NCBI GenBank assembly: GCA_016290095.1
Contig: JAEESU010000025.1
Coordinates: forward strand, 8,161-72,160
DNA: 64,000 nt
From: Clostridia bacterium
Lineage (GTDB): Bacteria; Bacillota; Clostridia; TANB77; CAG-508
Direction of reading: 5' to 3'
A program made the position numbers and the translations under genes. A model generated the notes under the pieces. It worked only from the letters and a program-made list of their open reading frames with translations. It was not told the DNA's origin and did no database searches. This document shows positions 8,237 to 52,091 of the stretch, piece by piece (within the stretch, counting starts at the first letter, position 1; every line of letters starts with the position of its first letter).

Positions 8237-8974
8237 ATGCAAGAAAGTATTAAAATTATAAAAGATAAAATTGTTGAAGTAAACTATATAGATAAAACAA
8301 TAGAAATAAGAAAAGATGAACAAGCAAAAATTGATGAGTATTGGAAAACAGTTTCAAAACAGTTTACAAGAGGACAAATATTTGTTGTAGACAATATAGA
8401 AGAAAAAGGAAATAATTTATTTATAAATATATTAAATAGTGATTATGCACATTATATCTTTGTTAGAAGAAATCCAGGAAAAGCTAGAGAATGTTATAAT
8501 TTATGGGCAGGAATTTTATTAGAAACACTTGACAACAAATATGTTATAGGAAAAATGTCAAGTATTACTTCTTCAGCAGGAGAATATCATATCTCAGGTG
8601 GTTCTTGTGATAAGAATGATGTTATAGCTGGTAAAATGGATTATGAAAATACAATGTATAGAGAGCTTGAAGAGGAAATGGGGATTACAAAAAATATTTT
8701 AAAAAATGTTGAAATGAAATATATGAAGAAAGCTTTTTTTACTGAACAAGATATAGGAATTATTTATAAAGCACTTGTTAATATGACATCTAATGAATTG
8801 GATAAATATTATAAAGAGTATTTGAACAAATTGAAGAATGAAAACGGTGAAATAGAATTTGATGAATTAGCATATATAGCTAATAACAAAGATGCTATAG
8901 AAGAGTTTTGCTTGTCAAGTAGGATTCCAGAATATACAAAAGAATTATTACTTAAAGATGTAAGCGAAAAATGA
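8237..8974 (+). CDS. NUDIX-family hydrolase
   Basis: Nudix-box-like GGSCDKNDVIAGKMDYENTMYRELEEEMGI. Start moved to ATG 8237 behind a GAGAGGA SD. Confidence 0.6.
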   Translation: MQESIKIIKDKIVEVNYIDKTIEIRKDEQAKIDEYWKTVSKQFTRGQIFVVDNIEEKGNNLFINILNSDYAHYIFVRRNPGKARECYNLWAGILLETLDNKYVIGKMSSITSSAGEYHISGGSCDKNDVIAGKMDYENTMYRELEEEMGITKNILKNVEMKYMKKAFFTEQDIGIIYKALVNMTSNELDKYYKEYLNKLKNENGEIEFDELAYIANNKDAIEEFCLSSRIPEYTKELLLKDVSEK

Positions 8975-9040
8975 GCCTTTTGGCTTGTTTTTTTTTGAGT
9001 TTTGCTATATAATTCTAAATCAGATGAGAGGAGAAAAATT

Positions 9041-9331
9041 ATGGCTATTGATAAAAATGAAGTAATTCATATTGCTAAACTTGCAGATCTAAATTTATCT
9101 GAAAATGAAATTGCAGGATACACAAAAGATATGCAAGAAATATTAGAATATGCAAACATGATTAATAATGTTAATACAGATTCTATGGAAGAAACTGTAT
9201 TAGTTGACAAAGAAAAATATAATGTTTTTAGAAAAGATGAAGTAAAAGAATTTAAGAATAAAGATTTATTAATGGAAAATGCACCAAGTAAAGAAGACGG
9301 AATGTTTAAAATTCCAAAATTTTTAAATTAG
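9041..9331 (+). CDS. gatC: Asp/Glu-tRNA amidotransferase subunit C
   Basis: MAIDKNEVIHIAKLADLNLSENEI.. and its position upstream of gatA/gatB. GAGAGGAG SD. Confidence 0.88.
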   Translation: MAIDKNEVIHIAKLADLNLSENEIAGYTKDMQEILEYANMINNVNTDSMEETVLVDKEKYNVFRKDEVKEFKNKDLLMENAPSKEDGMFKIPKFLN

Positions 9332-9343
9332 ATTGAGGAAGGT

Positions 9344-9940
9344 ATGATAATAGGAATAGATATAGATGACACAATTTCAGACACAACAGAAGTAATGTTT
9401 AATTGTTGTCAGAAATATATAGTAGAAGATTTAAAAAGAGAGCCATTAGTTCAAGACCAGGCAAAATTTACGCATCATTTCATAGAAGTTATTCATGGGT
9501 TAACTAGAGAAGAAACAGAGAGCTTTTTTAGAAAATATTATGAATATATAGTAGATCATGTAATTCCAAAAACATATTCAGTAGAATATCTTAAAAAGTT
9601 AAAAGAAGATGGAAACAAAATTGTATTAATAACAGCAAGATTTCCAATAAAAGAGTTTGATGTTATTGAATCAACAAAAAAATGGCTTGAAAAGTATAAT
9701 ATTCCATATGATGAAGCAATTTTTGATGCACAATCAAAAGTGGAAGCTGCCAAAAAAGAAAAAATAGATGTATTTATTGATGATAGCTATAAAAATTGCA
9801 AAGATATTTCAGAAAATGGAATAAAAGCATTTCTAATGGATTCAAGAGGCAATAGAGGTTTAGAACCAGAAGGTTTTGAAAGAGTGTATTCTTGGTCGCA
9901 TTTATATTATAAATTAAATGATAATGGAGGGAAAGTTTAA
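9344..9940 (+). CDS. HAD-superfamily hydrolase, 5'(3')-deoxyribonucleotidase (NT5C)-like
   Basis: Motif I IDIDDT at the N-terminus, ..IVLITAR.., ..DVFIDD.. Sits between gatC and gatA. Its stop overlaps the gatA ATG (TAATG). Confidence 0.65.
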
Positions 9941-11415
9941 TGGAACTTTATGAATATACAGCACATGAATTAGCTGATATGCTAGAAGAGAGAAAAACTA
10001 CTTCAGTAGAAATAACAAAAAGTTACTTTAGTAGAATTAAAGAAATAGATCCTAAAGTAAAAGCATATGTCACAACTTTGGAAGAGAGTGCTTTAAAGAA
10101 AGCAGAAGAGGTTGATCAAAAAAGAAAAAATGGAGAAAAAGTTTCAAAATTAGCAGGTATTCCAATAGGAATAAAAGATAATATTTGTATTACAGGAGTA
10201 AAAACAACTTGTAGTTCAAAAATGCTTGAAAACTTTGTTTCTCCATATGATGCTTCAGTAATCGAAGATATTAATAGAGAAGATATGGTTTATCTTGGAA
10301 AATTGAACATGGATGAATTTGCAATGGGAAGTTCAACAGAACATTCTGCATTTTTCAAGACATCTAACCCATGGGATTTAGATAGAATACCAGGAGGATC
10401 CTCAGGTGGAAGTGCAGCAGCAGTTGCTTCTAACATGGCACCATGGGCGCTAGGAAGTGACACAGGTGGAAGTATTCGTCAACCAGCATCACTTTGCGGT
10501 GTAGTTGGATTAAAACCAACATATGGATTAGTTTCAAGATATGGTTTAGTAGCATTTGCATCTTCACTTGACCAAATAGGACCTTTAACAAGAGATGTAA
10601 CAGATTCAGCACTTCTTCTAAATATAATTGCAGGTCATGACGAAAAAGATTCTACCTCAAGCAGTAGAGAGAAAAAAGATTATACAAAATCTTTAGTAAA
10701 TGATGTAAAAGGAATGAGAATAGGCATTCCAAAAGAATACATCGGAGAAGGAATTAATCAAGAAGTAAAAGATGCTATTTTAAGAGTTGCCAAAAAATAT
10801 GAAGAATTAGGTGCAACAGTAGAAGAATGTTCTTTTTCAGCAGGAAAGTATGCTACAGCAGTTTATTATATTATTGCTGATGCAGAAGCAAGTTCAAACT
10901 TAGGAAGATTTGATGGAATCCGTTATGGATATAGATCTGAAAAAGCAGATTCAATGGAAGATATATTTAGAAATTCTAGAAGTGAAGGATTTGGACCAGA
11001 AGTAAAAAGAAGAATTTTATTAGGTACTTATGTACTTTCTTCAGGATATTATGATGCATATTATAAAAAAGCTCAAAAGGTTAGAACAGTTATTAAAGAA
11101 GCATTTAATGAATTGTTTAATAAATATGATTTATTATTAACACCAACTTCTCCTACGACAGCATTTAAAATGGGAGAAAAAATGGACAATCCACTTGAAA
11201 TGTATTTAGCTGATATTTGTACAGTTCCAATCAATATAGGAGGTGTTCCAGCAATATCTGTTCCATGTGAATTAGATAAAGAAGGACTACCAATAGGATT
11301 CCAATTAATAGGAAACTCATTTGAAGAGGAAAAGATACTAAGAGCTGCTTATACATATGAGCAGAATACAAACTTTAAAGAGAATAAACCAACATTTAAA
11401 GGAGGTAAGAACTAG
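9940..11415 (+). CDS. gatA: Asp/Glu-tRNA amidotransferase subunit A
   Basis: Amidase signature [12 protein letters not shown]. Confidence 0.93.
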
Positions 11416-12855
11416 ATGCTAAGAGATGATTATGAAATGGTAATCGGTTTGGAAGTTCACTGTGAGCTTTCTACAAAGACAAAACTATTTTGTTCATGCC
11501 CTACAACATTTGGAGGAAGCCCTAATACACACTGTTGTCCAGTTTGTACGGCAATGCCAGGAAGCTTACCAGTATTAAATGAAAAGGTTGTAGAATATGC
11601 TGTAAAAGCAGGACTTGCTACAAATTGTAGTATTGAAAAAAACAGTAAAAACGATAGAAAAAACTATTTTTATCCAGATAATCCAAGATCATACCAAATT
11701 TCTCAGTATGATAAGCCACTTTGCTATGAGGGATATGTAAATATAGAAACAGAAAATGGAGAAAAAACTATAAGAATTGAGAGAATTCACATAGAAGATG
11801 ATGCTGGAAAATTAAATCATGATGAATATGGAAGAGGAAGTTTTGTTGATTTAAATAGAGCAGGAATTCCATTAATAGAAGTTGTTTCTAAACCAGATAT
11901 GAGAAGTCCAGAAGAGGCAGAAACCTATATGAGAAAATTAAAATCAATTTTCGAATATATAGGGGTATCTGATTGTAAAATGGAACAAGGTTCATTAAGA
12001 GCAGATGTCAATGTTTCTGTTAGAAAAAAAGGTTCAGAAAAATTTGGAACAAGAACAGAAATGAAAAATATGAGTTCATTTAGAAGTATAGTAAGAGCAA
12101 TTAGCTATGAAGCTGAAAGACAAGTAGATGTAATAGAAAATGGTGGAGTTGTAGAGCAAGAAACATTAAGATGGGATGATATTTCAGGAAGAACATTTAC
12201 AATGAGAAGTAAAGAAAATGCTAATGACTACAGATACTTCCCAGAGCCAGACTTAGTTGCAATTAGACTTTCAGATGAATATATTGAAAATGTTAGAAAT
12301 TCTTTACCAGAACTTCCAGAATCAAAGAGAAAAAGATATAAAGAAGAATATGAATTATCAGATAAAGCAGCAAATTTTGTTGTATCTTCTAAATATTATT
12401 CAACACTTTTTGAAGATTCAATTAAAGTATGCAACAATCCTAAAGCAGTAGGAAACTTTATAATGGGCGATATAGCAAGAATTTTAAATGAAAGAGAAGA
12501 AGAACCTGATAGTTTAGAATTTACAGGAAAAGAATTAGGAGAGTTAGTTACTTTAGTTGATAAAGGAACAATAAGTTCAGCAATAGCTAAAAAAGTGTTA
12601 GAAGAGCTATTTGAAGAAGTTAGAATGCCAAGCAAAATAATAGAAGAAAAAGGCTGGGTTCAAATTTCTGACGAAGGTGCTATTAAGGAAGTAGTAAATA
12701 AGATTTTAGAAGCAAACCCACAATCTATTGCAGATTATAAAGCTGGAAAAGATAGAGCATTAGGATTTTTAGTTGGACAAGCAATGAAGGAAACAAAAGG
12801 AAAAGCGAATCCGCAGTTACTAAACAAGTTGTTTTTAGAAGAATTAAATAAATGA
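11416..12855 (+). CDS. gatB: Asp/Glu-tRNA amidotransferase subunit B
   Basis: VIGLEVHCELSTKTKLFCSC.. and the C-terminal GatB/YqeY region. Confidence 0.93.
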   Translation: MLRDDYEMVIGLEVHCELSTKTKLFCSCPTTFGGSPNTHCCPVCTAMPGSLPVLNEKVVEYAVKAGLATNCSIEKNSKNDRKNYFYPDNPRSYQISQYDKPLCYEGYVNIETENGEKTIRIERIHIEDDAGKLNHDEYGRGSFVDLNRAGIPLIEVVSKPDMRSPEEAETYMRKLKSIFEYIGVSDCKMEQGSLRADVNVSVRKKGSEKFGTRTEMKNMSSFRSIVRAISYEAERQVDVIENGGVVEQETLRWDDISGRTFTMRSKENANDYRYFPEPDLVAIRLSDEYIENVRNSLPELPESKRKRYKEEYELSDKAANFVVSSKYYSTLFEDSIKVCNNPKAVGNFIMGDIARILNEREEEPDSLEFTGKELGELVTLVDKGTISSAIAKKVLEELFEEVRMPSKIIEEKGWVQISDEGAIKEVVNKILEANPQSIADYKAGKDRALGFLVGQAMKETKGKANPQLLNKLFLEELNK

Positions 12856-15783: not shown

Positions 15784-16809
15784 ATGCTTAAAGAGCCAAA
15801 CACATGGAAGGACACAAATACACATTTTGTGAAAGCTCTAAAAAATGATTGGTACAAACAATTAGTTTTATTAGAGAATTTAATTACAGAGGAAACCGTA
15901 AAGTTTTACGGAAAAAAAGGAATTATGACTATTCATTTGCCAGTTACTACAGGTTCGATATCGAGTCCAATGGGAAGAGGCAGTGACTCAAAACCTGTAA
16001 AAGTCAACTTAGAAGGCGTTGATACATATTTGGCAGATTCTATGCAATTCCTTTTAGAATATGGATGTAGATTAAGTGAAAAAGGATGTTATTATGTTAT
16101 GCCGTCTTTTAGAGGTGAATTAGCAGATGAAAGACATTTATGCCAGTTCTATCATAGTGAGGCAGAAATACCAGGTAGTTTGGAAGATGTAATGAGTTTA
16201 GTTGAGCAATATGTTAAGTATTTATCAAAGAGAATTTTAGTTAAAATGGGTGACACATTAAAAGAAACAGTAGGAGATATTAGTCATATAGAAAAAGTTG
16301 CAAAACATAGAGGAAGATTTAAAAGAATTACATTTGATGAAGCAGAAAGAGTATTAAAAGAAAGATTTCCAAAAAATATTTCTGATTATATAGAATACGA
16401 GGATGGCTGGAGAAATATAACAAGAAAAGCAGAAAAAGAACTTATTAATATTTATGGTGGAGTTGTTTGGGTTACAAATTATGACGAACTAGCAGTTCCA
16501 TTTTATCAGAAATTAGATGACAAAATTAAAGGTACAACTCGAAATGCAGATTTACTAATGGGAATAGGAGAAACTATAGGTTGTGGAGAAAGACATGAAG
16601 GGCATAAAGAATTATTAAAAGCATTAGAAAGACATTGTGTATTACCAGAAGAGTATGATTGGTATATTGAAATGAAGAAAAAGTTTCCACTTCAAACCGC
16701 TGGTTTTGGTATGGGAGTAGAAAGATACTTAATGTGGGTATTAAAAGCAAAAGATATAAGAAACATGCAAATATGTTTAAGATTTAATGGAGAAAATATC
16801 TTACCATAA
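15784..16809 (+). CDS. AsnRS/AspRS-like class IIb catalytic core without anticodon-binding domain (archaeal AsnA-like)
   Basis: Motif 2-like FRGELADERHLCQFYHSEAE. Motif 3-like GFGMGVERYLMWVLKAKDIRN. At 341 aa there is no OB-fold N-domain. Confidence 0.7.
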   Translation: MLKEPNTWKDTNTHFVKALKNDWYKQLVLLENLITEETVKFYGKKGIMTIHLPVTTGSISSPMGRGSDSKPVKVNLEGVDTYLADSMQFLLEYGCRLSEKGCYYVMPSFRGELADERHLCQFYHSEAEIPGSLEDVMSLVEQYVKYLSKRILVKMGDTLKETVGDISHIEKVAKHRGRFKRITFDEAERVLKERFPKNISDYIEYEDGWRNITRKAEKELINIYGGVVWVTNYDELAVPFYQKLDDKIKGTTRNADLLMGIGETIGCGERHEGHKELLKALERHCVLPEEYDWYIEMKKKFPLQTAGFGMGVERYLMWVLKAKDIRNMQICLRFNGENILP

Positions 16810-16820
16810 GGAGAAAGAAT

Positions 16821-17951
16821 ATGTTGTTATTAAAAAATGTATTATTAAATGAAATAAAAACAGATATTTTTATTTCAGATAATAAAATTACAAAAATTGG
16901 AAAATTAAATGAAAGAGACTTTAAAAAGGTTTTTAATAATATTGAGGTAATTGATTGTGACAATAAATATATTATTCCAGGATATATAGATAATCATGTT
17001 CATATTACAGGAGGTGGAGGAGAAAAAGGTTTTTCTTCTAAAGTTCCGGAGATAAAATTAAGTGATATTATTTCTAGCGGTGTTACAACAGTAGTTGGAG
17101 TTTTGGGTACTGATACAATTACTAGAAGTGTTGAGAACCTTGTTTCCAAAACGAAAGCATTAAATGAGGAAGGAATAACAGCATATTGTCTAACAGGTGG
17201 ATATGAATTTCCATCACCAACATTAACAGAATCAGTCCAGAAAGATATAGCTTTTATTAATGAAGTTATTGGTGCTAAGATTGCTATTTCAGATCATAGA
17301 TGTTATAACCCACTTAAAGAAGATTTAATTAAATTGATGTCAGAAGTTAGAGTAGCATCTCTTATAAGTGGAAAAAAGTGTAGTGTAAATTATCATGTAG
17401 GTTGGGGAAAAGGAAGTATGAGTCAGCTATTAGATATATTATATGAAACTAATATACCGGCTGATTTAGTTAGACCAACTCATATTACATGTACAGATAC
17501 AGTTTTTGAACAAGCAATAGAAATGGCAAAGAATGGATCATATGTAGATATTACAGCTGGAGAAAATGTTGAAAAGAGTGTTACATATATTATTAAGTCT
17601 TTTGAAAAAGGAATTAGTGATATGTTAACTGTTTCTTCAGATGGTAATGGATCAGTACCAATTTGGCAAGATGGTAAATGTATAGGAATGAATGCACATT
17701 CTCAGATAGGATTACATAAAATTATTAAAGAGTTAGTTAAAACTCATAATTATAAATTGCAAGATGCAATTAAAATTTTAACAGTTAACCCTTCAAATGC
17801 ACTTGGTTTAACTCAAAAAGGAGAAATAAAAGAAGGAAAAGATGCAGACATTCTTATATTAGATCATAATTATGATATTGATAGTGTTATTGCAATGGGA
17901 AAAGTTTTCATGTTAAATAAAAATATTATGAGAAAAGGAATGTATGAATAA
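16821..17951 (+). CDS. iadA: isoaspartyl (beta-aspartyl) dipeptidase, amidohydrolase superfamily
   Basis: PGYIDNHVHITGGGGEKG matches the IadA signature region. Size is about 376 aa. Confidence 0.75.
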   Translation: MLLLKNVLLNEIKTDIFISDNKITKIGKLNERDFKKVFNNIEVIDCDNKYIIPGYIDNHVHITGGGGEKGFSSKVPEIKLSDIISSGVTTVVGVLGTDTITRSVENLVSKTKALNEEGITAYCLTGGYEFPSPTLTESVQKDIAFINEVIGAKIAISDHRCYNPLKEDLIKLMSEVRVASLISGKKCSVNYHVGWGKGSMSQLLDILYETNIPADLVRPTHITCTDTVFEQAIEMAKNGSYVDITAGENVEKSVTYIIKSFEKGISDMLTVSSDGNGSVPIWQDGKCIGMNAHSQIGLHKIIKELVKTHNYKLQDAIKILTVNPSNALGLTQKGEIKEGKDADILILDHNYDIDSVIAMGKVFMLNKNIMRKGMYE

Positions 17952-18612
17952 AATGTTAAGTAATGAAAAAGAAGTGTTACAAAGCAGAGAAAAAATATTT
18001 AATTATAATAAGTTTAATAAATATGAAAAAACAATAGATAAATTACAAATTCCAAAAATATTCGATTATAAAAATTGTATACCTATAGCATTTTCAATGG
18101 ACAATTATAGTGAAATAAAGAAATTTAAAGTGGGTGAATACCAAGTGTTATATAAAGAAATGAAGAATTACATTAGAAATGAAGGGGTGGATGCTAATAG
18201 GGATGTAATTGTGATAGTTCATCCATTTTATCCAACTATAAGACATGCCAACTTTTTAATTGAATATAATGATTATTTTAAAAAATATATTGATTATGAA
18301 GAGAAAATTACAAATATGTTAGAAAGTAAAAATTCAAATATAGTATTATTTGAAAGTCCAGATAATTTTGCAAGATATACTTACAAATTTTATGATAACA
18401 ACAGCATAAAAAATGTTGTTTTTACTGAGCATTCAAATGGAAAGGTATTAGACAAAGAAGATTTAAAAATATTTAGTGGTGTAAAAAGATGCATTATCAT
18501 GGGATGCTATGGACAGTATTGTTTAAAGGATGTTAAAGATCAATTAGAAGAAATGGGAATTGATGTTATTTGCGATAAAGAATTAATATTAGAAAGAGCA
18601 ATAGAAGTGTAG
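17944..18612 (+). CDS. hypothetical protein (operon member, no family recognised)
   Basis: Overlaps the upstream stop by 8 nt, consistent with translational coupling. Confidence 0.55.
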   Translation: MNKMLSNEKEVLQSREKIFNYNKFNKYEKTIDKLQIPKIFDYKNCIPIAFSMDNYSEIKKFKVGEYQVLYKEMKNYIRNEGVDANRDVIVIVHPFYPTIRHANFLIEYNDYFKKYIDYEEKITNMLESKNSNIVLFESPDNFARYTYKFYDNNSIKNVVFTEHSNGKVLDKEDLKIFSGVKRCIIMGCYGQYCLKDVKDQLEEMGIDVICDKELILERAIEV

Positions 18613-18621
18613 GAGGTATAT

Positions 18622-19893
18622 ATGCGAAAAGTTGTATTAGTAGGTGGTGCAACAGGAAGAGAACATGCAATAGCAAAACAATTTTATGAGCAAGGATATG
18701 AATTATCTGCAATATTATGGGCCGAAAATGAGTATGTTAAAAAATATTGCAATGGAAAATATCTTAGAATTGATTTAAATAAAGTTGAAGAAGTTTTTGA
18801 AGCTATAAAAGAAATAAAACCAGATTATGTTATGATAGGTCAAGGTGAAGTAATACAAAGAGGTTTATGTGATTTGCTTAAAGAAGTAAATATTCCATAT
18901 ATTGGGCCAACAAAGAAATTGGCTCAATTAGAAGGATCAAAAACATTTTGTAGAAATCTTCTAGAGGAAATAGATGATTCATTGAATCCAAAACATAGAG
19001 ACTTTTATGAAATATCAAAAGAATTAGAAGATTATATTAATGATTTTAGTACAAAAATTGTTGTAAAATGTGATGGAGTAATTACAGGTCCACGTGTAAG
19101 AATTTATGAAAATAATCAAAAAGATGAAGCTATAAAAAATGCCAAGAACTGGTTAGAACAATATGGTCACATAATTGTTGAAGAATTTATTAATGGACAT
19201 GAAGTTGCTATAATGAGTTACACTGATGGAAAAAGCCTTGTACATACACCTGTATTTAAAAATCATAAAAGAATAGGTGAAAATAATACAGGAGAAAATA
19301 CTTCAGGAATGGGAACAATAACTGGAAAGGAGTGTTTTCCATATATATCAGAAACTGCAATAGAAAAAATGCATGAGATAACAGAAAAAGTTATGAAAGT
19401 AATAACAGAGAAATACAACGAAAAATATATGGGAAGCCTTTATGGAGAATTCTTGGTTTCTGAAGATGATGTAAAGGTAATTGAATATAATTGTAGATTT
19501 GGAAATCCATCTATGATGAACATTCTAGCTATAATGAAAATTAGTTTTCCAGAATTATGTGAGCACATTTTAAATGGAACTATTAATGAATTAGACAATA
19601 TTTTTGATGAAGAAAGTGTAAGTTTATCTGCATATGTTGTGCCTAAAGATTATACTGTAAATAAAGATTATGTTGGAACAGAAGTTGATTTTTCTGAAGT
19701 TGATGAAGATATATTTTATTGCGGAAATATGAATTATGAAAATGGAAAGTTTTATTTAAAAAATAGTAGAGCATTTGCTGTTTGTATAAAAGAAAAGAAT
19801 ATATCTGCGGCAAGAAAAAGAGTTTATGGAGAACTAGAAAAAGTAAAAGGTAACATTTATTATAGAAAAGATATTGGGGAGGTTTTAGCGTGA
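18622..19893 (+). CDS. PurD-like ATP-grasp ligase (phosphoribosylamine-glycine ligase family paralog)
   Basis: VVLVGGATGREHAIA, EEFINGHEVAIMSYTDG, GENTSGMGT and VIEYNCRFGNPSMM parallel the PurD motifs. Confidence 0.7.
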   Translation: MRKVVLVGGATGREHAIAKQFYEQGYELSAILWAENEYVKKYCNGKYLRIDLNKVEEVFEAIKEIKPDYVMIGQGEVIQRGLCDLLKEVNIPYIGPTKKLAQLEGSKTFCRNLLEEIDDSLNPKHRDFYEISKELEDYINDFSTKIVVKCDGVITGPRVRIYENNQKDEAIKNAKNWLEQYGHIIVEEFINGHEVAIMSYTDGKSLVHTPVFKNHKRIGENNTGENTSGMGTITGKECFPYISETAIEKMHEITEKVMKVITEKYNEKYMGSLYGEFLVSEDDVKVIEYNCRFGNPSMMNILAIMKISFPELCEHILNGTINELDNIFDEESVSLSAYVVPKDYTVNKDYVGTEVDFSEVDEDIFYCGNMNYENGKFYLKNSRAFAVCIKEKNISAARKRVYGELEKVKGNIYYRKDIGEVLA

Positions 19894-20468
19894 AAATAGG
19901 ATTTGATTTGGATGGAGTAATATTAGATAATACAAGTTTTAAAGTTAAAATGTTTAAAGAGCTATATGATATGAATTTTGAGGATTGGCAGGTTTCATCT
20001 AATATTATTGATGAGTATGTTCCTGACAGAGAAATAAGAAGAAGCGTTGGAAAATTAGCCAGTACAAGAGAAATTGCGAGAATCTTAGACACAAAATGTG
20101 TTGAAGTATTAGCTAAATTAAAAGCTGACGGAAATGAATTATACATTGTCAGCAGAAGAGGTAAATCTGATGATGGACAAAAAGCTGCCTTAAGGACAAT
20201 CAAAGAACTTAATTTAGGACAGTATTTTGAAGATATTATTCTTTGTGAGACAGAAGAAGATAAAATAAATACAATAATTAATAGAGGAATAAATATTTTT
20301 ATAGATGATAGAATAGGTGTTGCTGAAGGAGTATATGGAAAAATAAATTGTAGTTTACTATTTGATAATTTTGAATTAGTAGATAGACATCTAATAAAAA
20401 TGGAAAAACCAATTTCATGCGTAAGAAGTTTTGAAGACATAGAAAGAGAGGTTCAGAAATATGAATAG
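19890..20468 (+). CDS. HAD-superfamily phosphatase (NT5C-like, paralog of 9344-9940)
   Basis: GTG start overlapping the upstream stop (GTGA). Motif I FDLDGV, ..LYIVSRR.., ..NIFIDD.. Confidence 0.65.
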   Translation: MKIGFDLDGVILDNTSFKVKMFKELYDMNFEDWQVSSNIIDEYVPDREIRRSVGKLASTREIARILDTKCVEVLAKLKADGNELYIVSRRGKSDDGQKAALRTIKELNLGQYFEDIILCETEEDKINTIINRGINIFIDDRIGVAEGVYGKINCSLLFDNFELVDRHLIKMEKPISCVRSFEDIEREVQKYE

Positions 20469-21408
20469 CATCGAGGAATATAAAGAAAAAATTGAAAGAG
20501 CAATTAATGGTAAGATAGATAAAATTGAATTAATATCTAAAACAAATAATATAGTATTAAGATATGCATTAAATGGTATATATTATTTTGCAAAGTTTTA
20601 TAAAGATGGGGAAACTCATACAGATAATGAAGTTTTATTATATGAAAATATTCCAGTAGAGGGGAGAAAATACTTAAAAAATTTAGTTTACTCAAATTTT
20701 GAAACTGATGAAAGTGAAAAATTTGCAATTTATGAAGAGGTAAAAGGGAAGACATTAGCAAGTTTGCTTGATAATAACGCAGTAAATGAAGAAATGGCTG
20801 GAAAAATTGCAAAAGAATTGTTAAACTATTTTAGAATCGTATCTAAAATAAATAGTACTAATTATGGAAATCTTGCACATAATTTCGATGGAAATTATGT
20901 GGATTTTCTTCAATATTTGTATGAATATCAATTTAAAACTACAGAAACTCTTTTTTTGGATAGTAAAACTAGAGGAATATCATCATTACCTTATGAGTTA
21001 TTATCAAAATATGCAGATTTGTTAGATGAAGGATATAGTTGTGTTACACCTATTGATTCCAATTTCAAAAATATTATGATTACTGATAAAGGGGAAGTAA
21101 AAATAGTGGATCCAGGAGCAATTGTAAGTGCTCCGATGAGTATGGGATTAGGAGAATTAGTAGCCCACTCTTATGGAACAATTATATATGATAAGCTAAT
21201 TGAAGAGATGCATCCTACATCAAAAGATAAAAAGAGATTAAGTATATATGGAATCTTGTCATCAATGAATGTTATGGCATTTTTAGTAAGGAACAAGATA
21301 GGTGATATTAATACAAGTAAACCGTTTGGAAATAAAAATACATTTTTTGAATTAATAAGAGGACATTTAGGAGTTATACAGAAAGAAGATATTGTAGAAG
21401 AAAGATAG
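20461..21408 (+). CDS. kinase-fold protein (aminoglycoside/choline phosphotransferase-like)
   Basis: Catalytic-loop-like PIDSNFKNIMI and ..KIVDPGA.. Overlaps the upstream stop by 8 nt. Confidence 0.5.
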   Translation: MNSIEEYKEKIERAINGKIDKIELISKTNNIVLRYALNGIYYFAKFYKDGETHTDNEVLLYENIPVEGRKYLKNLVYSNFETDESEKFAIYEEVKGKTLASLLDNNAVNEEMAGKIAKELLNYFRIVSKINSTNYGNLAHNFDGNYVDFLQYLYEYQFKTTETLFLDSKTRGISSLPYELLSKYADLLDEGYSCVTPIDSNFKNIMITDKGEVKIVDPGAIVSAPMSMGLGELVAHSYGTIIYDKLIEEMHPTSKDKKRLSIYGILSSMNVMAFLVRNKIGDINTSKPFGNKNTFFELIRGHLGVIQKEDIVEER

Positions 21409-21419
21409 ATGGAGTAAAT

Positions 21420-22334
21420 ATGGTAGGTTTTTATAGATTAATTGATGAAAATGGTGCAGAAAATGAAATTGCTATTGATTCATTTAAAAAAGAAAAAGAA
21501 ATTTATAACACTTATTTCAAAAAAAATAATAAAGAACCAAATAATATTAATATAGAAAATATGAGTTATTCTCCAATTTATGTAGATAAAGATTTGGAGT
21601 GTTTTTCAAAATTAAAAAATATTATAGAAAAAAACATAAAAGAAAAACTAAATGTAAATGAAATAAAAACGCCTAACATACTAGAGAATAATGAAAGATT
21701 TGTAGAGTTACAAAAGCTTTTTGGATTAGAACAATTTATTTGCAATAATAATTATATTCTTCCACCTGCAAGTGATTTTGCAGTTTTCGAATGGTTTAAA
21801 GGAAGAGATATAGTAAAAAAAGAAATACCATACAGAATATATGAATTTGCTAAATGTTACAGAATAGAGGAAAAAGAAAAACAGACAAATGTGCTTAAAA
21901 GACCTACTTCTTTTCATCTTCCTGATATTCATGTTTTTCATGATGAGGGAAGCTATGAAGAATGTTTAAAACATTTGCAAATATATGATAATGTTTTAAA
22001 TGAATTAGATATTAAACATGATTTAGCTTTAAGAATAACTGAGGAAGAATATAATTTTCATAAAGATAAAATAATAGAGATTTCAAAAAAACTAAACAAA
22101 AAAATGATTGTAAATGTTGTTCCTAGTTCAATAAAGTATTGGGAATCAAAATTTAAATATATATACATAGATAGTCAAGAAGATGTTGTTCAATTGTCAA
22201 CAGTTCAAGTAGATTATAGAACATCTAAATTATTTAATATAAAAATAGAAGGGGAATATGCGAAAATAATTCATTCTTCAATTGGAAGTATGGAAAGAGT
22301 GATGTATGCGTATTTAGATAAATATAATGATTAA
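21420..22334 (+). CDS. class IIa aaRS-like catalytic core (Thr/Pro/Ser-RS type) lacking an anticodon-binding domain
   Basis: Motif 2-like CYRIEEKEKQTNVLKRPTSFHLPDIHVF. Motif 3-like SIGSMERVMYAYL. Length is 304 aa. Confidence 0.6.
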   Translation: MVGFYRLIDENGAENEIAIDSFKKEKEIYNTYFKKNNKEPNNINIENMSYSPIYVDKDLECFSKLKNIIEKNIKEKLNVNEIKTPNILENNERFVELQKLFGLEQFICNNNYILPPASDFAVFEWFKGRDIVKKEIPYRIYEFAKCYRIEEKEKQTNVLKRPTSFHLPDIHVFHDEGSYEECLKHLQIYDNVLNELDIKHDLALRITEEEYNFHKDKIIEISKKLNKKMIVNVVPSSIKYWESKFKYIYIDSQEDVVQLSTVQVDYRTSKLFNIKIEGEYAKIIHSSIGSMERVMYAYLDKYND

Positions 22335-22890
22335 AATTGCTGTAACAGGTCCACATTGTTGTGGGAAAAGTACTGTTTTGAAAAAAGTGAGTAGTATTTT
22401 ATCTGAAAATAAAAAAATAAATTTCGAAAAATTCGATGGTAGTGATTCTCCAGTTGATTATAGTAGTTCAGAATATTTGAAAAATAATAATAAGGCAGAA
22501 ATTGATATTACATATTGGATGATACAGAAACTTATTAAAAGAGAAATAGATCTTGAGTATAGTAATAAGGAAATTGCTGTATTAGATAGATGTATTATAG
22601 ATCAAATAGTATATCCATCAGAATTATTAAGTGAAGAATACACAAATGATATTTTTGGCTTTATCAAATTATGGATGAAAATTCATCCATATGACATTGT
22701 TTTTTATATTCCACAAAATAATGAATTATTGCAAAAATATGGCAAAAAAGATAAAAGTTCAGAATATTTGAAAAATATTGAAAATAGATATTTTTCAGTG
22801 TTAGAACAATTGAAAATAAATTATATAGTTTTACCAAAAGATCAAGACGAACAGGTTAGAATAATAGCAGATTACTTAAGTAATTTGTAG
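22327..22890 (+). CDS. P-loop NTPase / nucleoside(-tide) kinase-like protein
   Basis: Walker A VTGPHCCGKST. Overlaps the upstream stop by 8 nt. Confidence 0.6.
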   Translation: MIKIAVTGPHCCGKSTVLKKVSSILSENKKINFEKFDGSDSPVDYSSSEYLKNNNKAEIDITYWMIQKLIKREIDLEYSNKEIAVLDRCIIDQIVYPSELLSEEYTNDIFGFIKLWMKIHPYDIVFYIPQNNELLQKYGKKDKSSEYLKNIENRYFSVLEQLKINYIVLPKDQDEQVRIIADYLSNL

Positions 22891-23000
22891 AAGGAAAAAA
22901 AGCTTGACAAGGCTGATATAATATACTCGAGAGGAAATTGTATTTGACAACAAATACAATAATGTTAAAAATTCGATTAATTACTAATAAGGGGAATTAT

Positions 23001-23579
23001 ATGGACGAAGAAAGGAAAAAATTTTTGGCATCAATTCGAGTAGAAAAAGAGAATCATCCAACAATTAAAAAAAGTAAAGGAATTATTTATCCTAATTACT
23101 TAGTAAAAAATGGTATAGATGGATTAACTCATATTGATCATGTTACTCATTTGGGAATTAAAATAGGAGAACAAACATATACAGACGAAGAGATATTACA
23201 TATTGCTTTAGGTTGCTTACTTCACGATGTAGGTAGAGGTCGTGAACTTCCGGGACAAAGACATGGAGCAGCAGGCGAACCATTAGTTAGAAGTATTTTA
23301 AAAGACAGATTTTTTCAATACTTTGATATAGATGTTGATAAAATTGCATATGCTGTAAAACATCATGATGAAGGAAAAGTAATAAGAGATAGAATAATAG
23401 GAGGCATATGGGATGCGGATAGATTATCGCTGTTTAGATTCCCATCTAAAGTGATAGATTTAAGCTTACTTTCAACAAATGAAGCTAAAGAATTACTCTC
23501 ATATGCTAAAAAATATATTGAAGATAATATGGGTGAGTATAACAGAGATCGTGAGTCTGATGACGATGATGCAAGATAA
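23001..23579 (+). CDS. HD-domain phosphohydrolase with C-terminal tail ending DDDDAR
   Basis: LLHDVGR, KHHDEG and WDADRLS motifs. Start moved to ATG 23001 behind a GGGGA SD. Tail is ..NRDRESDDDDAR-stop. Confidence 0.7.
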   Translation: MDEERKKFLASIRVEKENHPTIKKSKGIIYPNYLVKNGIDGLTHIDHVTHLGIKIGEQTYTDEEILHIALGCLLHDVGRGRELPGQRHGAAGEPLVRSILKDRFFQYFDIDVDKIAYAVKHHDEGKVIRDRIIGGIWDADRLSLFRFPSKVIDLSLLSTNEAKELLSYAKKYIEDNMGEYNRDRESDDDDAR

Positions 23580-23583
23580 AGAA

Positions 23584-23625
23584 GAAACCGGCCAGCATAT
23601 TCATGCGGGGCCGGTTTCTTTTTTT
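23584..23625. terminator. GC-rich hairpin terminator between convergent HD gene and aspS
   Basis: GAAACCGGCC...GGCCGGTTTC followed by a T7 run on the + strand. Confidence 0.8.
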
Positions 23626-23645
23626 GTGCTATCCAGAGACAGCGT

Positions 23646-23657
23646 GTGATTGTTTGA
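23646..23657. repeat. left copy of a 12-bp inverted repeat bracketing aspS (GTGATTGTTTGA)
   Basis: Exact reverse complement of 25028-25039. Confidence 0.9.
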
Positions 23658-23660
23658 TGT

Positions 23661-24983
23661 TTACGGTGTGAGACGCTTGGGGTTCCTAGATACCAGGGTT
23701 ACAGCACGAATGTTGGGGAGGCCAAGCATTTTCATAATAAGCCTTGCCAGACCAAATCCGAAACCACCATGGGGAACAGAACCATACTGGAAGAAGGTGA
23801 GATAGTCCTTGAGGGATTCCATCAGTTTGCTGTCCTTTTCAGTTTTTTCCTTTTCGAGGATCTGAGAAACGAGGACATCATACCGGTGTTCTCTCTGGGC
23901 GCCAGTTGTTACCTCAACACCACGATAAATCAAGTCGAAGCTCTTGGTAAGAGTGGGGTTAGATTCGTGGCGCATGTGGTAGAAAGGACGGACGCTTACA
24001 GGATAATCTGTCACAAAAACAAAATCGTGGCCGTAGTGCTGTTCAACATATTGGCCGAGAAGCTGTTCTTCTTCAGGACTCAGGTCGTTTTCTTTTTGAG
24101 ATACACATCCGAATTCTTTCTTAAGGATTTCCTTGACTGTCGCGAGGGGAATCCGAGGGAAAGGTGTAGACGGAACGATAATCTCTTTTCCATACAGTTC
24201 CTGAACTCTGCTACCAAGCTTTTTGGCAGCAACCGCCATAAAGTACTGGATCCATTCTTCTTCCAGTTTCATGACATCTTCATGGCTTTCAATCCAAGAA
24301 ATCTCTGCGTCGACACTGATGAACTCAGTTTCGTGCCTAGAGGTAAAACTCGGATTAGCGCGGAAAACAGGACCAATCTCGAAAACCTTTTCGAATCCAG
24401 CGTTCATCGCCATCTGCTTATAAAATTGAGGCGACTGAGCCAGGTACGCAGTTTTTCCGAAGTATGGAACGGAGAAAAGTTCGCTACCAGATTCGGAGCT
24501 TGTTCCCATGAGTTTGGGGCTGTGAATCTCAATGAAATTGTGGTCGGACCAATACTGACGCATTGCCTGTTCGATAACCGTGCTGAGCTCGAAGATGAGC
24601 CGGTTTTCAGGAGCACGAAGCTCAAGAAATCTCCAGTTCATTTTGAGTTCTTGAGAAGAATTTTCGTCGATAGGGAGCTCTGCCGGTGCTAGGGAAACCA
24701 CATTGATTTTTTGGGGAAGAATCTCAATGCCACCGAGCTTTACACTGGGATTGTGATAAACTTCGCCAAAAATTTCCACGGTGGAATTTACAGTGAGAGT
24801 AGAACAGATGCTGGCCAGCTCAGGATTTTCCTCTTTGCTAACAAAAATCTGCACAGAACCACTGAAATCCCGGACGACCAAAAAAATGAAACGTTTGGTG
24901 TTACGTACGCTTGCGACAAAACCACAGATTTTTACGTCTGATGGTGCAATTGCAGCAAGACTTCCAATGAGATTCCTGTTCAT
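23661..24983 (-). CDS. aspS: aspartyl-tRNA synthetase, archaeal/eukaryal type (short form, no GAD insertion); GC-rich cassette 2
   Basis: N-terminal OB fold, QSPQFYKQ, motif 2 FRANPSFTSRHETEFISVDAE, motif 3 GGFGFGLARLIMKMLGLPNIR. Length is 440 aa. GAAGGAGG SD. Confidence 0.88.
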   Translation of the reverse strand: MNRNLIGSLAAIAPSDVKICGFVASVRNTKRFIFLVVRDFSGSVQIFVSKEENPELASICSTLTVNSTVEIFGEVYHNPSVKLGGIEILPQKINVVSLAPAELPIDENSSQELKMNWRFLELRAPENRLIFELSTVIEQAMRQYWSDHNFIEIHSPKLMGTSSESGSELFSVPYFGKTAYLAQSPQFYKQMAMNAGFEKVFEIGPVFRANPSFTSRHETEFISVDAEISWIESHEDVMKLEEEWIQYFMAVAAKKLGSRVQELYGKEIIVPSTPFPRIPLATVKEILKKEFGCVSQKENDLSPEEEQLLGQYVEQHYGHDFVFVTDYPVSVRPFYHMRHESNPTLTKSFDLIYRGVEVTTGAQREHRYDVLVSQILEKEKTEKDSKLMESLKDYLTFFQYGSVPHGGFGFGLARLIMKMLGLPNIRAVTLVSRNPKRLTP

Positions 24984-25027
24984 GGATATTCCTCCTTCGT
25001 TTGCGATGTGAATGTACTATGTAAATC

Positions 25028-25039
25028 TCAAACAATCAC
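25028..25039. repeat. right copy of the 12-bp inverted repeat (TCAAACAATCAC) in the aspS 5' UTR
   Basis: Exact reverse complement of 23646-23657. Lies in the loop of a 10-bp UTR hairpin (ATGTAAATCT/AGATTTACAT). Confidence 0.9.
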
Positions 25040-25058
25040 GGAAAAGATTTACATAATT

Positions 25059-25087
25059 ATTATACAACAGAGGCCCCAAATAGTCAA
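25059..25087 (-). promoter_or_regulatory. sigma-A type promoter of aspS
   Basis: On the minus strand: TTGACT, 17 nt spacer, TATAAT. Confidence 0.65.
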
Positions 25088-25186
25088 TAAAAGATTGATA
25101 TATTACATATTTTTAAATGTTATTGTTTCAATTATTTTTTAGTGATATTATATTTTATATAAAAAAGATAGGAGATATTTTTTTAT

Positions 25187-32508: not shown

Positions 32509-32521
32509 GAACATAAGTGAT

Positions 32522-32550
32522 TTGCAAAAATCATGTAAAAGTGATACAAT
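32522..32550 (+). promoter_or_regulatory. promoter of GC-rich cassette 3
   Basis: TTGCAA, 17 nt spacer, TACAAT. Confidence 0.55.
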
Positions 32551-32666
32551 ATAAGTATTCCCAGTTGAATTGCCTATACTTACAAATTATGCTAATGCAT
32601 ATATGTAATGAAAGGCATTCAAAAGTCACCCGAATCAACCAACCGACGAACAAAGGAGAGAGAACA

Positions 32667-32969
32667 ATGGTGAACACCGAACTGGAACGCAAGAACGACA
32701 AGGAACCCAAGTACCTGAACATCGTTCTCATGTGCGTGGAACAGCGCATGCCTGTCATGATGATGGCTTCCAGCGATTATTATGACTGCGCCATGAGCGG
32801 TGAGACCCTGACCGTCCGCATCACGGACAAGCAGCTGAGGAAGATCCTCAAGAAGTTCAAGAGGCTCGTTCTGCAGCTTCGCTTCCATGATGAGTACGAG
32901 GGGGACTACACCGTGAAGGACATCACCTACGTTAACGGCCGCATGGAGGTGGTGTTGAGCTTCGCGTGA
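32667..32969 (+). CDS. GC-rich cassette 3: hypothetical soluble protein (100 aa)
   Basis: AAGGAGAG SD before ATG 32667. The compositional shift begins only shortly upstream (about 32620), so the track start 32517 is rejected. No family recognised. Confidence 0.6.
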   Translation: MVNTELERKNDKEPKYLNIVLMCVEQRMPVMMMASSDYYDCAMSGETLTVRITDKQLRKILKKFKRLVLQLRFHDEYEGDYTVKDITYVNGRMEVVLSFA

Positions 32970-51506: not shown

Positions 51507-52091
51507 ATGACAGACAGGATTCGTGAAACCGAGGTTGGTACACCAGTACTTACCGATGCCCAGACTGGGCAAAGCCGGAGGGTTACGCACTTGGAAGATG
51601 AACAACCTGTAGCCAGACGCACACGTAGAATCCACCAGGACTATTCCCAGGAACTCAAGCAGAGAAAGCAAGCACTGAAAAAGGCACTCAGAAATGAGCA
51701 GAAAATGCAGAAGAAAGCCAAACGGAAAGAAAAGCGTGTCCAGCGGAAAGCTGAACGGAAGGAGAAATGCAGAAACAGGAATCGTAGAATCGCGAGGGCG
51801 ATCCCTTTCCTACTGATTGTGCTGGCGGTCATGTGGATTGCCAAGTACCTTCAGGCAGAATACCCCGACATGTTTCAGCGCTATCCCGCCGTTGAATGGG
51901 CCGTGAAGGTGTTTCTGAAGGTTGCCGATTTCGGTTACGCCATCGTGAAGTTTGTGGCCGGAACGGTAGCTGAGCTTTTGAACCCGCTGTTCACTCAGTT
52001 CAAGCAGAGCCCCAACTGGCAGACCATCAGCAACGAATGGGCTAACCTGTGGCAGCAGTTCCTTGCTGTGATCGAGACCCTGCGCTTCTGA
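51507..52091 (+). CDS. GC-rich cassette 7: membrane protein (194 aa) with Arg/Lys-rich N-terminal half
   Basis: AAGGAG SD, KKAKRKEKRVQRKAERKEK stretch, one TM helix (IPFLLIVLAVMWIA). No family recognised. Confidence 0.6.
   Translation: MTDRIRETEVGTPVLTDAQTGQSRRVTHLEDEQPVARRTRRIHQDYSQELKQRKQALKKALRNEQKMQKKAKRKEKRVQRKAERKEKCRNRNRRIARAIPFLLIVLAVMWIAKYLQAEYPDMFQRYPAVEWAVKVFLKVADFGYAIVKFVAGTVAELLNPLFTQFKQSPNWQTISNEWANLWQQFLAVIETLRF

Follow-up and report, generated by a model that had tools for sequence, protein, structure and literature searches.

An accessory archaeal-type aspartyl-tRNA synthetase linked to synthetase-like operons in gut Clostridia: a putative target-replacement enzyme

We have analyzed a stretch of 64,000 nucleotides (the window) from the genome of a Clostridia bacterium (assembly GCA_016290095.1, contig JAEESU010000025.1), focusing on an archaeal-type aspartyl-tRNA synthetase (AspRS). 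This 440-residue protein, P0001, is encoded at 23661–24983 on the reverse strand. It is the third AspRS of its genome, an accessory enzyme that was not vertically inherited, and together with a convergent operon it makes up a conserved module of two parts. The gene is redundant, foreign in composition and absent from congeners, and its linkage to such operons recurs in two AspRS lineages. Based on gene content and conserved context, we conclude with moderate confidence that P0001 is most likely a target-replacement (immunity) enzyme for the putative product of the operon. An earlier note on this DNA had offered two roles for the AspRS, as a non-discriminating enzyme feeding the amidotransferase GatCAB or as an inhibitor-insensitive copy providing self-resistance. 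The second proposal stands insofar as the gene is an acquired extra copy of foreign composition that is physically associated with each complete operon found, while resistance to an inhibitor is presumed. The first fares less well and is discussed below.

P0001 consists of an anticodon-binding OB-fold (PF01336 tRNA_anti-codon, residues 17–95, E = 2e-10) followed by a class IIb catalytic core (PF00152 tRNA-synt_2, residues 111–431, E = 9e-77). A Pfam scan of the 440 residues identified neither a GAD insertion nor any further domain; the GAD domain is the criterion that splits bacterial-type from archaeal-type AspRSs (PMC4206432). The protein scores 458.2 bits against the NCBIfam model NF003483 (aspartate--tRNA(Asn) ligase), well past the cut-off of 353, and lies slightly below the cut-off of the older model TIGR00458 (358.8 versus 368.4). 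The nearest solved structures are those of Thermococcus kodakarensis AspRS (3NEL and 1B8A, E about 1e-93), and AspRS2 of Thermus thermophilus (1N9W) is matched with a phmmer E of 3.5e-79. When P0001 is aligned with these three structures, the motifs that bind aspartate and ATP are conserved, namely QSPQ..K, the motif 2 arginine, the D/E pair, the arginine of QREH and the motif 3 arginine. The corresponding segments are QSPQFYKQ from residue 183, FRANPSF (motif 2) from residue 207 and GFGFGLARL (motif 3) from residue 407. The description in the earlier note (440 residues, QSPQFYKQ, motifs 2 and 3, no GAD insertion) is thus confirmed by Pfam, NF003483 and the alignment. By every sequence criterion of the family, P0001 is an archaeal-type (GAD-less) class IIb AspRS, and it is a functional-looking enzyme.

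The gene is an addition to a complete housekeeping set. A genome-wide search for a second aspS and for asnS, as the note had suggested, identified two bacterial-type AspRSs (582 and 583 residues, 52% identical to each other) and an AsnRS; a LysRS is also encoded. Congeners share this housekeeping set, and an archaeal-type AspRS was found in none of 24 genomes of the same genus. The composition of the gene also sets it apart. Its GC content is 45.7% in a genome of 1.5 Mb and 27.8% GC, and its GC content at third codon positions (GC3) is 0.474, compared to 0.11–0.18 for the flanking genes and a genome mean of 0.142 (standard deviation 0.055; z = 6.0, rank 7 of 1098 open reading frames (ORFs) of at least 150 residues). 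TTA accounts for none of its 38 leucine codons. These values agree with the prediction of a compositionally foreign block inside a genome well under one-third G+C. The gene is neither the sole AspRS nor vertically inherited, and it does not have the composition of its host, so that none of the three circumstances named beforehand as arguing against a foreign second copy applies. Both composition junctions are bridged by independent contigs, one of 935 nt from another run (22998–23932) and the other from a different bovine-gut study (24915–25119), which excludes a chimeric assembly. Six ORFs exceed the AspRS in GC3 (0.49–0.69), two of them in the window (32517–32969 and 51507–52091) and four elsewhere in this genome, G000 (C23:16131-16676, C2:3821-4783, C15:207342-207974 and C11:82266-83060); thus, the genome holds several compositionally foreign insertions.

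The AspRS gene lies tail-to-tail with a forward-strand operon (15784–23579, GC3 0.11–0.18), which we term type A. Its genes encode, in order, an AsnA-like class IIb core, an IadA-type β-aspartyl peptidase, an unknown protein of 222 residues, a PurD-like ATP-grasp protein, a HAD/NT5C protein, a kinase-like unknown protein of 315 residues, a ThrRS-like class II core, an AAA_28 P-loop protein and an HD protein. Relatives (L017, L018, L023, L024, L040 and L050; L numbers denote homologous loci) carry an additional Peptidase_S51 gene between the last two, which is cleanly deleted in the window at about 22891–23000. With scores of 256 (cut-off 322) and 240 (cut-off 389), the AsnA-like protein misses both asparagine-synthetase models. 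For the 222-residue protein (17944–18612), a language model weakly suggests a relation to isochorismatase-like hydrolases (score 0.91, with recognition short of the threshold normally applied). Translation of the HD gene probably begins at ATG 23001 rather than at TTG 22938. The one S51 gene that the genome retains elsewhere (G000:C7:22178-22768) shares 48% identity with its divergent counterpart in L018. PADLOC gave no match to a defence-system family.

The pairing of AspRS and operon is conserved well beyond this genome. A search of 5.8 billion proteins showed that the closest homologues of P0001 are metagenomic. The AspRS genes of L017 (93% identical) and of L018–L022 and L040 (67–70%) are tail-to-tail with the same operon, in differing outer contexts. 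The window and L017 are collinear with 85–87% nucleotide identity over the AspRS, HD and AAA_28 genes, the S51 gene being the sole exception. Between the window and L018 or L022, the operon proteins are 50–79% identical, in step with the 70% of the AspRS. In L024 and L050, a complete operon is accompanied by another archaeal-type AspRS, which is 46% identical and falls on a separate long branch; its gene is located upstream of the operon in the same orientation and has a promoter and a terminator of its own. An archaeal-type AspRS thus appears to have been recruited twice to the type A operon, from two lineages and at two positions. An adjacent archaeal-type AspRS accompanies all six complete type A operons and neither of two partial ones, both of which lack the AsnA-like gene. 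L023, closely related to L050 (85% nucleotide identity), has lost both the AsnA-like gene and the AspRS, and a distant operon in Acutalibacteraceae retains just the PurD-like, kinase and ThrRS-like genes, with no AspRS. The operon itself is sporadic. Using the operon-specific kinase-like protein as a marker against the species genomes and in an order-wide search, we detected it in four of the 401 genomes searched in the order, among them those with L024 and L050, and, at a meaningful score, in none of 74 congeners. Delimiting the island by synteny with congeners was attempted and abandoned, as the rhomboid neighbour is present in just 3 of 25 congeners and the flanks are not shared. No description of these operons or of this AspRS group was found in the published literature.

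In the AspRS tree (FastTree, local supports), P0001 falls within an 18-row subtree (support 99), which is enclosed in a 38-row subtree (support 99). Each member of the smaller subtree whose context was examined is tail-to-tail with either a type A operon or an operon of a second type, type B, and the two kinds of partner are intermixed across the subtree. Type B operons (four loci) encode a radical SAM/SPASM protein, a GFO oxidoreductase, a radical SAM protein, an HD protein, an AspRS-like catalytic core (422–426 residues) devoid of an anticodon domain, S51 peptidases, AAA_21, UDPGP, a GHMP kinase and NT5C. The larger subtree adds tandem units of an AsnRS-like gene and an AspRS. Of four such units, three contain S51 and three have a serine recombinase or an integrase in the vicinity; biosynthetic genes are absent from these islands. 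Hence, every examined context in the 38-row subtree is type A, type B or a recombinase island that carries an AsnRS-like gene and usually also Peptidase_S51. The outgroup AspRS, L044, is in an ordinary context, and its GC3 of 0.65 in a locus of 57% GC matches its host.

Several features of the islands and of more distant relatives were observed in addition. The AsnRS-like partners are located at 8681–9988 in L026, 8684–9985 in L027, 8684–9988 in L028 and 6677–7969 in L043. The island protein shares 28% identity with the host AsnRS, falls short of the asnS cut-offs and has GIADK in place of the substrate-binding GxQRE arginine of AsnRS and AspRS; it may not be a normal AsnRS. In L029, a tRNA gene (about 9820–9895, anticodon UGG (Pro) by eye) directly precedes a 5′-truncated AspRS of 384 residues, which suggests insertion at a tRNA site. 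Genes for archaeal-type aspartate--tRNA(Asn) ligases with 38–50% identity are also present on 24 plasmid records, for example NZ_CP090092.1 (Rhizobium leguminosarum) and NZ_CP094934.1 (Paraclostridium bifermentans), and the Rhizobium plasmid gene adjoins genes for an APH-like kinase, a nucleotidyltransferase and a carbamoyltransferase.

The AspRS is predicted to be transcribed as a unit of its own, from a near-consensus promoter; the public runs listed as containing the sequence include none of RNA. The sequence TTGACT-17-TATAAT (25059–25087, reverse strand) matches the consensus at 11 of 12 positions, and a TTGAC(T) −35 element with a (TG)nTATAAT-like −10 element recurs upstream of most homologous AspRS units. 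A Shine-Dalgarno (SD) sequence, GAAGGAGG (24991–24998, reverse strand), is located 7 nt before the ATG. A GC-rich hairpin with 16-nt arms, a 15-nt loop and U/T runs on each strand (23578–23624, both strands) forms a bidirectional terminator common to the AspRS and the convergent operon; owing to its 15-nt loop, it was overlooked by the automatic terminator scan. The promoter, strong SD and GC-rich terminator recognized in the earlier note are therefore all present, with the qualification that the terminator is shared.

A redundant copy of an essential enzyme, linked to Asp/Asn-type activating cores, transcribed from a separate strong promoter and found on islands, constitutes a signature of target-replacement immunity. 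Here, the extra copy exists besides the housekeeping AspRSs, and its linkage is conserved in both the type A operons and the four type B loci. From this arrangement we infer the nature of the operon product, the target of that product and the insensitivity of P0001. The Asp/Asn-type class IIb core, the ATP-grasp ligase, the kinases and the phosphatases of the operon would build an aspartyl-adenylate-like or aspartyl-nucleoside-like compound. This compound would block ordinary AspRS, and the extra AspRS, expressed separately from its own strong promoter, would keep tRNA-Asp charged. Relatives probably gain additional protection from Peptidase_S51, an Asp-X hydrolase of the PepE/cyanophycinase family that would detoxify the compound by cutting its aspartyl-X bond. 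The recombinase islands that carry the AspRS and the AsnRS-like gene without the operon would then represent orphan immunity islands in non-producers.

Comparable arrangements are known. Copies of aminoacyl-tRNA synthetases (aaRSs) in biosynthetic gene clusters confer immunity, as exemplified by the LeuRS AgnB2 (agrocin 84) and the SerRS AbmK (albomycin), and AspRS genes in actinobacterial clusters resembling that of microcin C have been proposed to do the same (PMC8323819). As with AgnB2 and AbmK, P0001 is an extra, divergent and acquired copy of the presumed target, which is linked to a cluster and coexists with intact housekeeping copies. Unlike those systems, it is associated with two new operon types of low-GC animal-gut Clostridia that are centred on aaRS-like cores, both the inhibitor and the insensitivity to it are presumed, and the same AspRS is also located on biosynthesis-free islands with an AsnRS-like partner. 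The operons also differ from microcin C-like clusters in having no MccB/ThiF, precursor peptide or exporter; neither ThiF (MccB) nor a transporter family was found among the operon genes of the window or of the related loci. Microcin C is detoxified by MccF, which cleaves off the aspartate (PMC8323819). By analogy, the S51 peptidases beside this AspRS subtree could act like MccF (Peptidase_S66), which strips aspartate from an aspartyl-nucleotide, although S51 is a different peptidase family with a predicted role, and its gene is deleted in the window. The MccF family itself is represented in L040, where genes for Peptidase_S66 (MccF/LdcA family, 1205–2203) and MazG (775–1104) adjoin the AspRS on its operon-distal side.

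Several observations weigh against immunity as the function of P0001. When its subtree is compared with relatives, no subtree-specific substitution can be attributed to an inhibitor pocket. The changes that are specific to the subtree (F22, S167, Y353, an insertion at 380–387, V403 and K436) are few and uninterpretable without a ligand-bound structure. FRANPSF (versus FRAEEH) and GLAR (versus GxER) were considered as resistance-type active-site changes and rejected, since they are common to more than 70 ordinary relatives; the variants FRANPSF and GL(T/S/A)R thus also occur in ordinary housekeeping enzymes. An exporter gene is absent from the genes of both operon types, which is unusual for a secreted antibiotic, and the cassette in the window has lost its S51 gene. 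In the metagenome-assembled genome (MAG) that contains L022, the sole bacterial-type AspRS found (L046, G041:C1:104500-108800) carries a frameshift at motif 2, and a second copy was not detected; either that organism relies on the AspRS of the cassette or the MAG is in error. Finally, the composition of the accessory genes is left unaccounted for by the immunity model. Each of the 13 accessory AspRS genes examined exceeds its host in GC content (GC3 0.27–0.48 in loci of 25–31% GC), while the operon genes beside them have GC3 at host values. As the copies diverge by up to about 40% at the protein level, a single old import should have equilibrated in GC by now. The persistent excess is due either to repeated re-import from GC-richer hosts or to selected GC-rich coding, perhaps for mRNA stability.

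Two other peculiarities of the coding sequence were considered and dismissed. A 307-residue antisense ORF (23769–24692, forward strand) is a by-product of avoided TTA, CTA and TCA codons, as 330 of 2000 synonymous shuffles equal it. Depletion of Asp and Asn codons, as an adaptation to intoxication, is indicated by the 3.0% Asp of P0001 but not by the accessory group, whose 5.0% is close to the 4.6% of the outgroup.

The AspRS could alternatively be a dedicated supplier that furnishes an operon enzyme with Asp-tRNA(Asp) or Asp-tRNA(Asn), a building block to be transferred onto a scaffold. Such tRNA-dependent biosynthesis would suit the aspartate theme of the linked operons (AsnA-like core, β-aspartyl peptidase and S51 Asp-X peptidases), and tRNA-dependent pathways elsewhere are known to draw on additional aaRS copies (PMC9437257). 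However, neither operon type contains a recognizable aminoacyl-tRNA transferase (Fem/GNAT-type, cyclodipeptide synthase (CDPS) or DUF2156), and both have amino-acid-activating cores of their own that, being anticodon-less, need no tRNA. The occurrence of the same subtree on islands without biosynthetic genes, in addition to the two AspRSs already available in the host, also renders this role unlikely.

We consider it distinctly unlikely that the AspRS, the S51 and IadA peptidases and the AsnA-like protein form a nutritional module for scavenging and charging Asp and Asn, or that the AspRS is a stress-tolerant spare, with no toxin involved. This explanation leaves the PurD-like ligase, the ThrRS-like core, the kinases, the HAD and HD proteins and the radical SAM, GHMP and UDPGP genes of type B unexplained, and it requires asparagine-related activity from an AsnA-like protein that falls short of both cut-offs given above. 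A trait confined to 4 of 401 genomes and missing from 74 congeners is sporadic for such a purpose, and association with mobile elements suits conflict genes more than core metabolism. It is consistent, on the other hand, with the failure to find an AsnB above cut-off in the genome, with the annotation of S51 and IadA as families that free Asp from peptides and with the MAG that may depend on the cassette AspRS alone. A precedent is Clostridium acetobutylicum, an organism of the same class that, according to a passage in PMC4206432 (citing Saad et al. 2012), likewise has three AspRSs together with AsnRS and GatCAB. The same passage ties this redundancy to physiology rather than resistance and describes it as T-box-controlled and related to Asn supply (PMC4206432), whereas the third copy in the window is mobile and operon-linked and its leader of about 75 nt has no Rfam match.

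The remaining role put forward in the earlier note, that of a non-discriminating AspRS providing Asp-tRNA(Asn) to the GatCAB encoded in the window (9002–12855) for tRNA-dependent asparagine synthesis, is unsupported as a main function, and we regard it as very unlikely. Neither a GatCAB that depends on the gene nor a missing AsnRS creates a genomic need for it. GatB was found in each of 25 congeners, 24 of which were also searched and lack an archaeal-type AspRS; GlnRS was not found in the genome, so that the need for GatCAB is accounted for without P0001; and the genome has an AsnRS. The two loci are 11 kb apart, separated by unrelated genes (thymidine kinase, GNAT and a cell-wall hydrolase), and the linkage that recurs in other genomes is to the operon. 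Trp26 and Lys85 of T. kodakarensis AspRS, which we take to be the discrimination determinants, align with Ala24 and Lys82 of P0001; this is not the His/Pro pair presumed for non-discriminating enzymes, and the aligned positions are uninformative. The best NCBIfam model is nevertheless named aspartate--tRNA(Asn) ligase, and the undetected AsnB would fit an indirect route to asparagine. Such a role is played by the archaeal-type AspRS that T. thermophilus and Deinococcus radiodurans have acquired (PMC4206432). P0001 resembles their AspRS2 (1N9W) in being short, GAD-less and acquired beside a bacterial-type AspRS, but differs in the presence of AsnRS, in the congeners that run GatCAB without the gene and in the link to an operon suggestive of secondary metabolism.

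A recently transferred AspRS cassette that landed by chance in the gap after the operon would have the sharp compositional boundaries, the promoter and terminator of its own and the flanking inverted repeats seen here, but such a hitch-hiker is highly improbable and strongly disfavoured given that the adjacency recurs in at least nine distinct contigs with two operon types, two AspRS lineages and two positions, and that the collinearity with L017 extends at the same identity across the AspRS and the operon genes.

The ends of the AspRS mRNA have a further unusual property. Within the 5′ untranslated region (UTR) of about 75 nt, a segment at 25021–25039 (reverse strand) is complementary at 17 of 19 positions to a segment consisting of the stop codon and the next 15 nt (23646–23664, reverse strand). 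The 5′ arm overlaps the loop and the 3′ strand of a local hairpin in the UTR (25018–25028/25045–25055, reverse strand). Complementarity is kept at the same two places, with different letters, in L017, L022, L040, L041, L027, L028 and L024/L050; examples of arm pairs are GTGATAGGCTTAAGG/CCTTAACCCTATCAC in L022, GTGATAGTTTTAA/TTAAAACTATCAC in L040 and GGTAGCTTA/TAAGCTACC in L041. In tandem units, the 5′ UTR of the first gene pairs with the end of the second. Cognate and non-cognate arms were compared for 10 independent units with 20000 permutations. The mean duplex energy was −15.4 kcal/mol for cognate pairs versus −8.5 kcal/mol for non-cognate pairs, with 1 of the 20000 permutations as good, and the cognate tail ranked first in 6 of the 10 units. 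Covariation of this kind points to a structure in RNA (or in single strands) more than to a recombinase site. The complementarity is a candidate for pairing between the ends of the mRNA and, as such, a testable putative case of end-to-end pairing in Firmicutes.

The UTRs are otherwise unremarkable in structure, with no Rfam family match, no T-box and a local fold stability of z = −0.6. Most units have a conserved box, approximately G-Y-ACATT-S-A, about 25–35 nt before the start codon (about 25000–25012, reverse strand, in the window). The box, which has no Rfam match, is also present in the 5′ UTRs of L022, L027, L028, L038, L039 and L041; in L038 and L039 it is located inside a nine-codon upstream ORF (uORF), MRFI[S/C]TFT[N/S], with its own SD. 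Short uORFs were noticed by eye in some 5′ UTRs, but attenuation by a leader peptide was rejected, as their Asp/Asn content is not conserved.

Returning to target replacement, it is possible, although we would stop short of calling it probable, that these features belong to one larger system. Gene clusters of a hitherto undescribed family in animal-gut Clostridia may make aspartyl-adenylate mimics without MccB or the machinery of peptides that are made by the ribosome and modified post-translationally (RiPPs), using two operon types centred on anticodon-less Asp/Asn cores. A mobile immunity module, comprising an inhibitor-proof AspRS and sometimes an AsnRS-like partner and S51, would pass among producers and be carried by recombinase islands into non-producers, and its mRNA may be built for persistence through GC-rich coding and end pairing. 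If so, the AspRS would be a marker for natural products of a new class, made by uncultured gut anaerobes and directed against aaRSs, with a resistance determinant that is already mobile. The combination of the accessory AspRS subtree, S51 and aaRS-like cores would provide a handle for genome mining and could lead to a candidate scaffold for AspRS inhibitors distinct from microcin C. The system would also be a natural case of target-replacement immunity that is spread by islands.

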